Shown: one piece after another, positions 51,069 through 51,192 of the stretch | Numbering within the stretch: the stretch's first letter is position 1 | Layout: each line of letters starts with the position of its first letter | Assembly: GCA_002633185.1 (NCBI GenBank) | Contig: NWBM01000002.1 | Coordinates: 438,832 to 502,831, forward strand | Origin: Lachnospiraceae bacterium Phil5 | Lineage (GTDB): Bacteria > Bacillota > Clostridia > TANB77 > CAG-508 | DNA: 64,000 nt | Reading direction: 5' to 3' | Notes under the pieces: generated by a model | Told to the model about the DNA's origin: nothing | Database searches by the model: none | Seen by the model: only the letters and a program-made list of their open reading frames with translations | Program-made: the position numbers and the translations under genes

Positions 51069-51192
51069 ATATAAAATAGATATATATTTTTATTCCGTTC
51101 GCTTACTGGCGCTATAGTTTTCAAAAAGACATAAATTAACAGCGCCAAACTGCGCGCTCCACTTCATAATAATATATATCTATTTTTATAAA
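51069..51192. ncRNA. Candidate structured element A: conserved GC-rich core (CTGGCG...AGCGCCAAACTGCGC...CACTTCA) inside an about 18-bp AT-rich inverted repeat, in the rplU leader
   Basis: Arms ATAAAATAGATATATATT / AATATATATCTATTTTTAT. The core is shared with 63764-63927, where the arms differ in sequence but pair equally well. Possibly the L21-leader class or a novel element. Confidence 0.4.

Follow-up and report, generated by a model that had tools for sequence, protein, structure and literature searches.

The question raised by this locus is what a short G + C-rich sequence, enclosed by A + T-rich inverted repeats, is doing beside the ribosomal protein genes rplU-rpmA of Lachnospiraceae bacterium Phil5. 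The DNA analyzed, called the window here, is a 64,000-nt stretch of contig NWBM01000002.1 (positions 438,832 to 502,831, forward strand), and it contains the sequence twice, next to rplU (copy A) and close to the end of the window (copy B). A first-pass annotation had interpreted copy A as a cis-regulatory RNA in a ribosomal leader, with a family resembling MITEs (miniature inverted-repeat transposable elements) as a fallback. It is shown here that both loci are old, immobilized copies of a multicopy, non-autonomous, MITE-like repeat of uncultured low-GC Clostridia. The fallback was thus the proposal that held, because the repeat is multicopy, has terminal inverted repeats, is flanked by 8-bp duplications and is present or absent at orthologous sites, all of which are defining features of MITEs (PMC3184786).

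Relatives were collected by pattern scans and with a covariance model. In a scan of one genome per species, about 15 genuine copies could be identified in low-GC metagenome-assembled genomes labelled 'uncultured Clostridia' or Lachnospiraceae, while chance matches in GC-rich genomes made up the majority of the output. A pattern scan of metagenomes resulted in 62 further loci, and the covariance model gave 92 matches in 661 kb of retrieved DNA. The collection of copies that had been suggested at first now comprises about 90 relatives across genomes and metagenomes. At least 3-4 copies were sampled per metagenome-assembled genome; their flanks are unrelated, their neighboring genes differ, and copies inside one genome are nearly identical. 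An Rfam search of five family loci and the full-length element returned just noise (plant microRNA-precursor and small RNA models far below threshold), a tRNA/tmRNA search of 77 elements detected none, and a full-text literature search with the core sequences found nothing. The repeat family is apparently undescribed.

Full-length elements measure 161-230 bp and form one long imperfect hairpin with the termini GTTAC...GTAAC. In the 224-230 bp form, the terminal inverted repeats read GTTAC(T/A)GTTTAA ... TTAAA(C/T)(A/T)GTAAC, and the 230-bp form has a conserved asymmetric basal junction, ...TTTGCAnnnAGCC (ending AGCC) before the stem and TACTCTAC... after it. The 161-bp form (loci L030 and L008) consists of stem, core and stem, with the stem itself starting GTTAC. 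An alignment with its flanks and direct reading delimit the 230-bp element of locus L078 (4557-4786), which is composed as follows:

Left terminal repeat: GTTACTGTTTAATAC
Basal junction, left side: TTTTGCAATAAGCC
Interior: perfect 43-bp stem, 72-nt core, return strand of the stem
Basal junction, right side: TACTCTACAAAG...
Right terminal repeat: GTGTTAAATAGTAAC

Perfect 8-bp repeats directly abut the GTTAC...GTAAC ends at these loci:

L078: ATATTACA
L123: CATAATTG
L164: CGACAAAT
L166: GGTCTAAG
L053: TAGTAAAC
L129: AATGAAAA
L030: AATTCAAA

Duplications of 8 bp with one mismatch were found at L035, at L016/L142 and around a 65-bp derivative in L035. Insertion polymorphism is seen at the 3′ end of rarA, where L107 is occupied and the window is empty, and upstream of rplU, where the window, L180, L182 and L183 are occupied and L184 is empty. 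The idea that the L107 copy had supplied the last RarA codons was rejected, as the stop codon is native. A purely novel RNA, also considered at first, does not agree with the relatives, which have MITE ends with target-site duplications.

Short elements of about 65 bp with GTTA(C/T)...GTAAC ends and without the long stem and core occur in L035 (3815-3879) and L008 (6790-6850, minus-strand reading). The one in L035 has the 8-bp duplication with one mismatch mentioned above (AATTAGAT/AATTAAAT); in L008, the 161-bp core element lies within the right end of the short element, and the repeat AAACAGTA is offset by 2 nt. An insertion of the core element into pre-existing hairpins or short MITEs was considered and discarded: derivation by hairpin deletion is the better explanation of the short coreless elements, as the last ~12 nt of a right arm are still present in the one in L008. 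In the short-arm subfamily, a tandem array of three left-end motifs GTTGCCGAGAGAAAG lies upstream of one copy (L165, 2086-2200, minus-strand reading).

The two copies of the window can be read against this anatomy. In the window, the 15-mer AGCGCCAAACTGCGC is found at two positions only, 51141 and 63857, in both cases on the plus strand, and two matches were obtained in 0 of 100 shuffles. The alignment of the cores falls into three blocks, and 50 of the 72 (copy A) and 76 (copy B) positions are identical. Two loci with a common three-block core were therefore described correctly, and so were the cores as sole G + C-rich islands: their G + C content is 46%, that of the arms 5-14% and that of the remaining intergenic DNA 18-26%. 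The parts of both copies, all on the plus strand, are:

51073-51093: left arm of copy A, 21 nt, 95% complementary to 51166-51186 (inverted-repeat search)
51094-51165: core of copy A, 72 nt, 46% G + C, variant CGCTTA...GCGCGC; plus is the family sense strand
51166-51186: right arm of copy A (inverted-repeat search), arms 72 nt apart
63765-63806: left arm of copy B, 42 nt, 93% complementary to 63883-63924
63807-63882: core of copy B, 76 nt, 46% G + C; plus is the sense strand
63883-63924: right arm of copy B (inverted-repeat search), arms 76 nt apart
63925-63970: decayed right outer part of copy B, in which basal junction and right terminal repeat survive as a remnant

Of copy B, the core and the 42-bp stem are left, together with a decayed right end. 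According to the alignment with family copies, its left arm is the homologue of the ~43-bp stem of full-length elements, and nhmmer aligned 63770-63960 of the window to positions 40-228 of the element model. The right-end remnant reads ...GAATAGTATAA, the family equivalent ...TAAATAGTAAC, and no target-site duplication is recognizable. Several C>T changes in the core of copy B affect positions that are otherwise conserved. Copy A retains just a 21-bp stem and the core, and it is located between the divergent predicted promoters of rplU and tsaE. The long inverted repeats described at first are present, copy B being the longest of the whole window (arms at most 200 nt apart), but they are near-perfect and not perfect, with one mismatch or bulge in copy A and three mismatches in copy B. 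Likewise, the arms are not entirely unrelated between the copies: the inner ~12 nt of both belong to a conserved family-wide motif, AAATATATTAAYAY / RTRTTAATATATTT. With filters switched off, the covariance model scored copy A (51082-51177) with 94.8 bits and copy B (63796-63893) with 88.7 bits; a third copy was not detected in the window, all other matches staying below 16 bits, and the family hidden Markov model agrees. The start of contig L188 was considered as a collapsed palindrome at copy B and dropped, being indistinguishable from an assembly artefact.

The genes and predicted promoters around the copies, which bear on the interpretation as a ribosomal leader, are:

50611-50925, minus strand: rplU
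51059-51031, minus strand: predicted rplU promoter, TTGACA-17-TAAAAT, 11/12 matches, TG extension
51199-51227, plus strand: predicted promoter of the tsaE operon just downstream of copy A, TTTACA-17-TAAAAT, 10/12 matches
51259-51726, plus strand: open reading frame (ORF) of tsaE (Pfam TsaE)
63734-63761, plus strand: predicted promoter before copy B, TTGTCA-16-TATAAT, 11/12 matches, ending 3 nt before the left arm

Copy A lies upstream of rplU, 148-260 nt from its start codon, with the -35 box 10-15 nt outside the copy. Because it sits upstream of this predicted -35 box, it is outside the predicted rplU transcript. If copy A were the L21 leader of rplU-rpmA and copy B a paralogous leader, a match to L21_leader (RF00559) would be expected, but none was obtained in the window at the gathering threshold nor in 50900-51300 at E<=10. 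Moreover, rplU is encoded on the strand opposite to the sense strand of the family, and in a sister lineage with an identical L21 protein (L181) the core has the inverse orientation. In L184, whose L21 protein is identical, no element is found beside the rplU promoter, while the leader downstream of the promoter is conserved. The ~90 relatives of this multicopy element are located beside unrelated genes. All that speaks for the leader is the proximity of copy A to rplU, the likeness to RF00559 being one of neighborhood alone, and the proposal is almost certainly wrong. Rfam gave no credible match at either copy, though a T-box and three tRNAs were found elsewhere in the window.

The rplU 5′ leader itself (50926-51030, minus strand; ctgtaagccgcctgagtcggg...tagctacctagtattttatgcttagcgag) is kept in L184 despite an otherwise different promoter region. 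It does not match L21_leader even at E<=10 either, and may be a divergent or unmodelled L21 leader of this lineage.

Both copies were also described as upstream of minus-strand operons. They do lie upstream of predicted minus-strand promoters, yet the description is misleading since both intergenic regions are divergent. On the plus strand, copy A is followed by an operon of tsaE, tsaB, an acetyltransferase and a Lon-like protease, and copy B lies between a gene for a YibE_F membrane protein (minus) and a dodecin gene (plus, ATG at ~64007, just past the window), the neighboring genes being taken from locus L185. Use of the predicted promoter at 63734-63761 would make copy B, read in sense, the 5′ leader of the dodecin gene. 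This promoter-like site overlaps the decayed left outer part of the copy B element (TATAAT versus CAATAA in the family), and the promoter may have evolved from element sequence. The coding sequence of the window is to 87% on the minus strand, and the plus strand has a GC skew of -0.21; both copies oppose the local leading strand, and each points at the adjacent plus-strand gene.

Three further features were recorded in the window. A T-box leader (RF00230, 100 bits) at 23835-24076 on the minus strand is located upstream of a minus-strand gene. Of the tRNA genes, two are on the minus strand (39198-39280 and 39369-39442) and the third is at 2910-2981. Between the first two, a 25-nt inverted repeat is found with 92% complementarity (39296-39320 / 39340-39364).

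Across the family, the most conserved part is not the ends but the core. The arms are 72-73 nt apart in nearly all copies, and the core blocks TCCGTTCG(Y)TT(R)CTGGCG, AAGAC and (GGTGGG)AGCGCCAAACTGCGC(R)CTCCACT are nearly invariant, also across copies without any arm similarity; the termini are less conserved. The stems are wholly different between lineages and still perfectly paired over 20-74 bp. Their length appears restricted, as 43 of the 72 untruncated copies have 41-46 paired stem bases, with a second mode at 17-22, and the basal junction is retained even among copies with unrelated stems. Double changes were found in 9/10 inner arm pairs among 70 distinct sequences and in 10/10 after adding copies, and the arm covariation score was reached by 0 of 500 shuffles. 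Whole-element folds of copies A and B have z-scores of -4.7 to -6.3 versus shuffles on either strand. The covarying closing helix seen in the first-pass annotation is thus real and strong. It is not RNA-specific proof, however, because the arm covariation is equally good on both strands.

A coding function of the core was rejected: one frame is open in the consensus, yet single-base indels in conserved blocks (e.g., CACT-CACT) show that it is not coding. Scans for sigma-70-like promoters found none within either core of the window, and inspection of the core blocks by eye revealed no match to sigma-54 or extracytoplasmic function (ECF) sigma factors, the sigma-54 -12 GC missing and the ECF-like spacing being wrong. 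An intrinsic terminator in the core is present on the minus strand of copy A only and is not conserved across the family. In one metagenome contig (L118, 2616-2741; AUXO013296011.1), a family copy is interrupted just after ...GCGCCAAACTGCG by DNA starting GTGTG, for which Rfam reports group-II-D1D4-2 (49 bits, E 3e-8, match cut by the contig end). This is a group II intron inserted in the conserved core, right after the GCGC-CAAACU-GCG hairpin.

The orientation of the family relative to genes was determined by orienting the loci by their core. The left neighbor gene is co-oriented with the core in 46 of 61 cases (15 opposed) and the right one in 47 of 59 (12 opposed); in tandem gene pairs, 29 cores are co-oriented and 3 opposed. 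The 5′ block of the core typically begins ~30-130 nt past the upstream stop codon, which places the start of the left arm just downstream of this codon. At L137 and L157, the element fills a short convergent intergenic gap and is bracketed by A- and T-tracts like a bidirectional terminator.

From these data, the following mechanism is proposed. The element would be transposed by a DDE transposase supplied in trans, to which the 8-bp target duplication points. The unit under selection or propagation is probably the hairpin together with the core at its apex, and this on a single strand (the plus strand of the window). Since most loci are directly 3′ of a co-oriented gene, the element is probably transcribed in sense as a 3′ untranslated region (UTR) hairpin, whose role could be that of a barrier or terminator; some convergent gene pairs would have no other candidate terminator. 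The core is most plausibly a sequence-specific recognition surface for a protein or the transposition machinery and not an autonomously folded RNA domain, and it may occasionally be flipped by recombination or template switching between the arms, as at copy A in a sister lineage. Taken as a whole, the MITE-like identity, the anatomy and this mechanism are considered, with good confidence, the best explanation of the two loci.

A number of observations weigh against it. Neither copy A nor copy B has a target-site duplication or intact termini, and a cognate transposase or an autonomous element with matching ends was not found in the ~660 kb of retrieved loci; weak terminal-repeat pairs 1-2.3 kb apart in L119 and L164 enclose ordinary genes, not transposases. 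BLAST searches of plasmid and phage collections with the full element and a core-pattern scan of viral contigs revealed no relative. The scan patterns demanded parts of the core blocks, so that core conservation is partly imposed by the collection, although AAGAC, GGTGGG and CTCCACT are conserved without having been demanded. Four loci (L135, L137, L157, and L163), which share the core variant CGCTTA...GCGCGC with copy A, have unique, perfectly paired arms of 27-54 bp, no basal junction and no duplication, and simple DDE insertion fails to explain them. On the strand of the element, 54 of 62 loci have a positive GC skew, hence the orientation bias could equally reflect the direction of replication. 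Among the arm mismatches, 11 are G.T and 11 A.C, i.e., there is no G.U preference. Finally, the core alone is no more stable than shuffles (mean z of -0.54 on the plus and +0.29 on the minus strand, 70 distinct cores), and its internal pairs are nearly invariant, with one covarying pair (U-A 63, C-G 13) that perhaps stems from a single clade. Several of the four loci named above resemble a core placed in the loop of a terminator hairpin.

The stability and covariation of the core bear on whether hairpin and core together are a new functional RNA (a ribozyme or a module that binds protein) for which the MITE would be the means of dispersal. RNAalifold and an alternative register depict the core as a short irregular hairpin extension, in which a helix CG(U/C)UUGC / GCGC(A/G)C leads to UGGCG / CGCCA and a variable tip. 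At this tip, L126/L134 (minus strand), L132, L148, L158 and L119 carry 40-130 nt of extra, well-paired hairpin, with further compensatory changes (e.g., G-C to A-U in L148) and with G.U pairs possible on the plus strand only. These longer-core copies, about six sequences, support the UGGC/GCCA helix and plus as the putative folded strand. The full element also folds better on the plus strand (-99.6 versus -88.8 kcal/mol). For an RNA function, it can further be argued that no Rfam family matches, that conservation is extreme in the would-be internal loops while the apical hairpin tolerates paired insertions, that one pair within the core covaries, that the orientation tracks neighboring genes, and that copy B directly follows a strong predicted plus-strand promoter. 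However, the core folds no better than shuffles, most of its pairs never vary, the arm covariation is symmetric between the strands, and the core of copy B folds poorly on either strand (z = +1.16). The core-internal fold is therefore weakly supported, and given its z-scores and invariant pairs, the core behaves as a conserved sequence displayed on a hairpin and not as a compact folded domain. A functional RNA of this kind is accordingly judged unlikely. The same doubt applies to its most far-reaching version, in which the 72-73 nt core on the length-constrained ~43-bp stem would be an undescribed functional single-stranded module. It would represent a new RNA class (protein-binding or self-processing) with a MITE as vehicle, sense-oriented in 3′ UTRs throughout a lineage of uncultured gut Clostridia, and the copies of the window would be domesticated survivors that have kept core and stem but lost their transposon ends.

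The conservation of the core in sequence and not in fold can also be understood if the core is a cis-acting transposition signal, i.e., a sequence to which the transposase or an accessory factor binds, or a hairpin feature of single-stranded DNA used during mobilization, without any role for the host. The orientation bias would then result from insertion coupled to the replication fork and not from transcription, in line with the positive skew of the element strand. The constrained stem length and the conserved basal junction look as if a protein gauges the distance, and the near-identical copies within a genome indicate recent amplification. On the other hand, DDE transposases normally require terminal repeats only, and here the termini are less conserved than the core. 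The copies of the window keep the core after loss of their ends and oppose the local leading strand, and no transposase was identified in the retrieved loci. Such a signal is possible, although it falls well short of being probable. For the function of the core within the MITE-like family, a service to the element as a transposition signal and a service to the host as an RNA or protein-binding module are thus rated nearly alike, the former slightly ahead and neither of them probable, the remainder being left to no specific function or to minor rivals.

The orthologous loci of copy A, retrieved via the exact L21 protein, revealed a change in the orientation of the core. It is the same in the window, L180, L182 and L183, but in L181 and the metagenome contig L151, which have perfect 25-bp arms, the flanks are identical and the core between them runs the other way. 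Because each orientation is tied to its own single-nucleotide polymorphisms in the flanks, the inversion, which ran through the arms, appears to be fixed per lineage. It would also be rare and not programmed, because relative to the basal junction the core is flipped in none of the copies that have one. A phase-variable inverton, in which the arms are recombinase sites and the flipping core switches the neighboring genes, could draw on this inversion, on the inner-arm motif conserved family-wide and on the location of both window copies between divergent genes. Yet the linkage to flank polymorphisms speaks against switching within a strain, the orientation in the family is strongly biased instead of mixed, and the core contains no convincing promoter. 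Furthermore, no recombinase gene was present among the ORFs and called genes read beside the window copies, a systematic search not having been made. An inverton is thus very improbable.

Several known repeat families resemble the MITE-like element in part. Bacterial MITEs such as the Correia elements of Neisseria and the enterobacterial ERIC and RU-1 (PMC3184786) are likewise small, multicopy, intergenic and devoid of a transposase gene, have terminal inverted repeats around a core as well as target-site duplications, form very stable long hairpins at the RNA level, and can carry functional motifs. In ordinary MITEs, however, the terminal repeats are conserved and the center drifts, whereas here the central core is most conserved and the long stems vary. 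The family is further set apart by the constraint of the stem to ~43 bp, the strong bias in gene orientation and the lack of a known cognate insertion sequence (IS).

The element bcr1 of the Bacillus cereus group is, like the present one, a non-autonomous repeat of Firmicutes (~155 bp) with strain-variable distribution, direct-repeat flanks and compensatory changes that keep a double-stranded structure, and it is known to be transcribed (PMC3184786). It differs in that its direct repeats are 5 bp long and two stem-loops make up a cruciform-like fold, compared to duplications of 8 bp and one long hairpin capped by a large conserved core here, and it has no sequence similarity to the window element. 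REP/REPIN elements, which are mobilized by RAYT, are also abundant intergenic hairpin repeats, often just 3′ of genes. They are known to affect mRNA stability and termination (PMC3184786). In REPs, a short GC-rich stem is conserved, the loop is variable and no target site is duplicated, while here the loop (the core) is conserved, the AT-rich stems are variable and 8-bp duplications are present.

With regard to the source of a transposase, the IS6/IS26 family, including the long clostridial ISCbo1, ISCpe7 and ISClte3, likewise generates 8-bp duplications and has members in Clostridia (PMC6807381). The consensus of its terminal repeats, GGTTCTGTTGCAAA, agrees with GTTACTGTTTAATA at 9 of 14 positions, among them C5, T6, G7, T8 and T9, but the hallmark GG start and G10 are absent here, and the resemblance is one of short AT-rich ends only. 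No IS6-type transposase was found near any copy in the retrieved loci. IS6/IS26 elements move via cointegrates, a route that does not easily lead to simple MITE insertions (PMC6807381). The resemblance, together with the 8-bp duplication, would be only a lead.

For the annotation of genomes, the analysis removes a false 'ribosomal leader' and provides a covariance model and sequence signatures with which the repeats can be masked or annotated in metagenome-assembled genomes. If the interpretation is true, uncultured gut Clostridia harbor an undescribed repeat family in which the usual logic of MITEs is reversed, with a conserved center, stems that covary over 40-85 bp and are of a seemingly measured length, and an orientation that follows transcription or replication. 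This reversed pattern would imply that a hairpin carrying a specific sequence at its apex is under selection, possibly caused by structure-dependent transposition or by an RNA or protein-binding module that is spread around the genome, and in some loci the element may function in a 5′ or 3′ UTR or as terminator.

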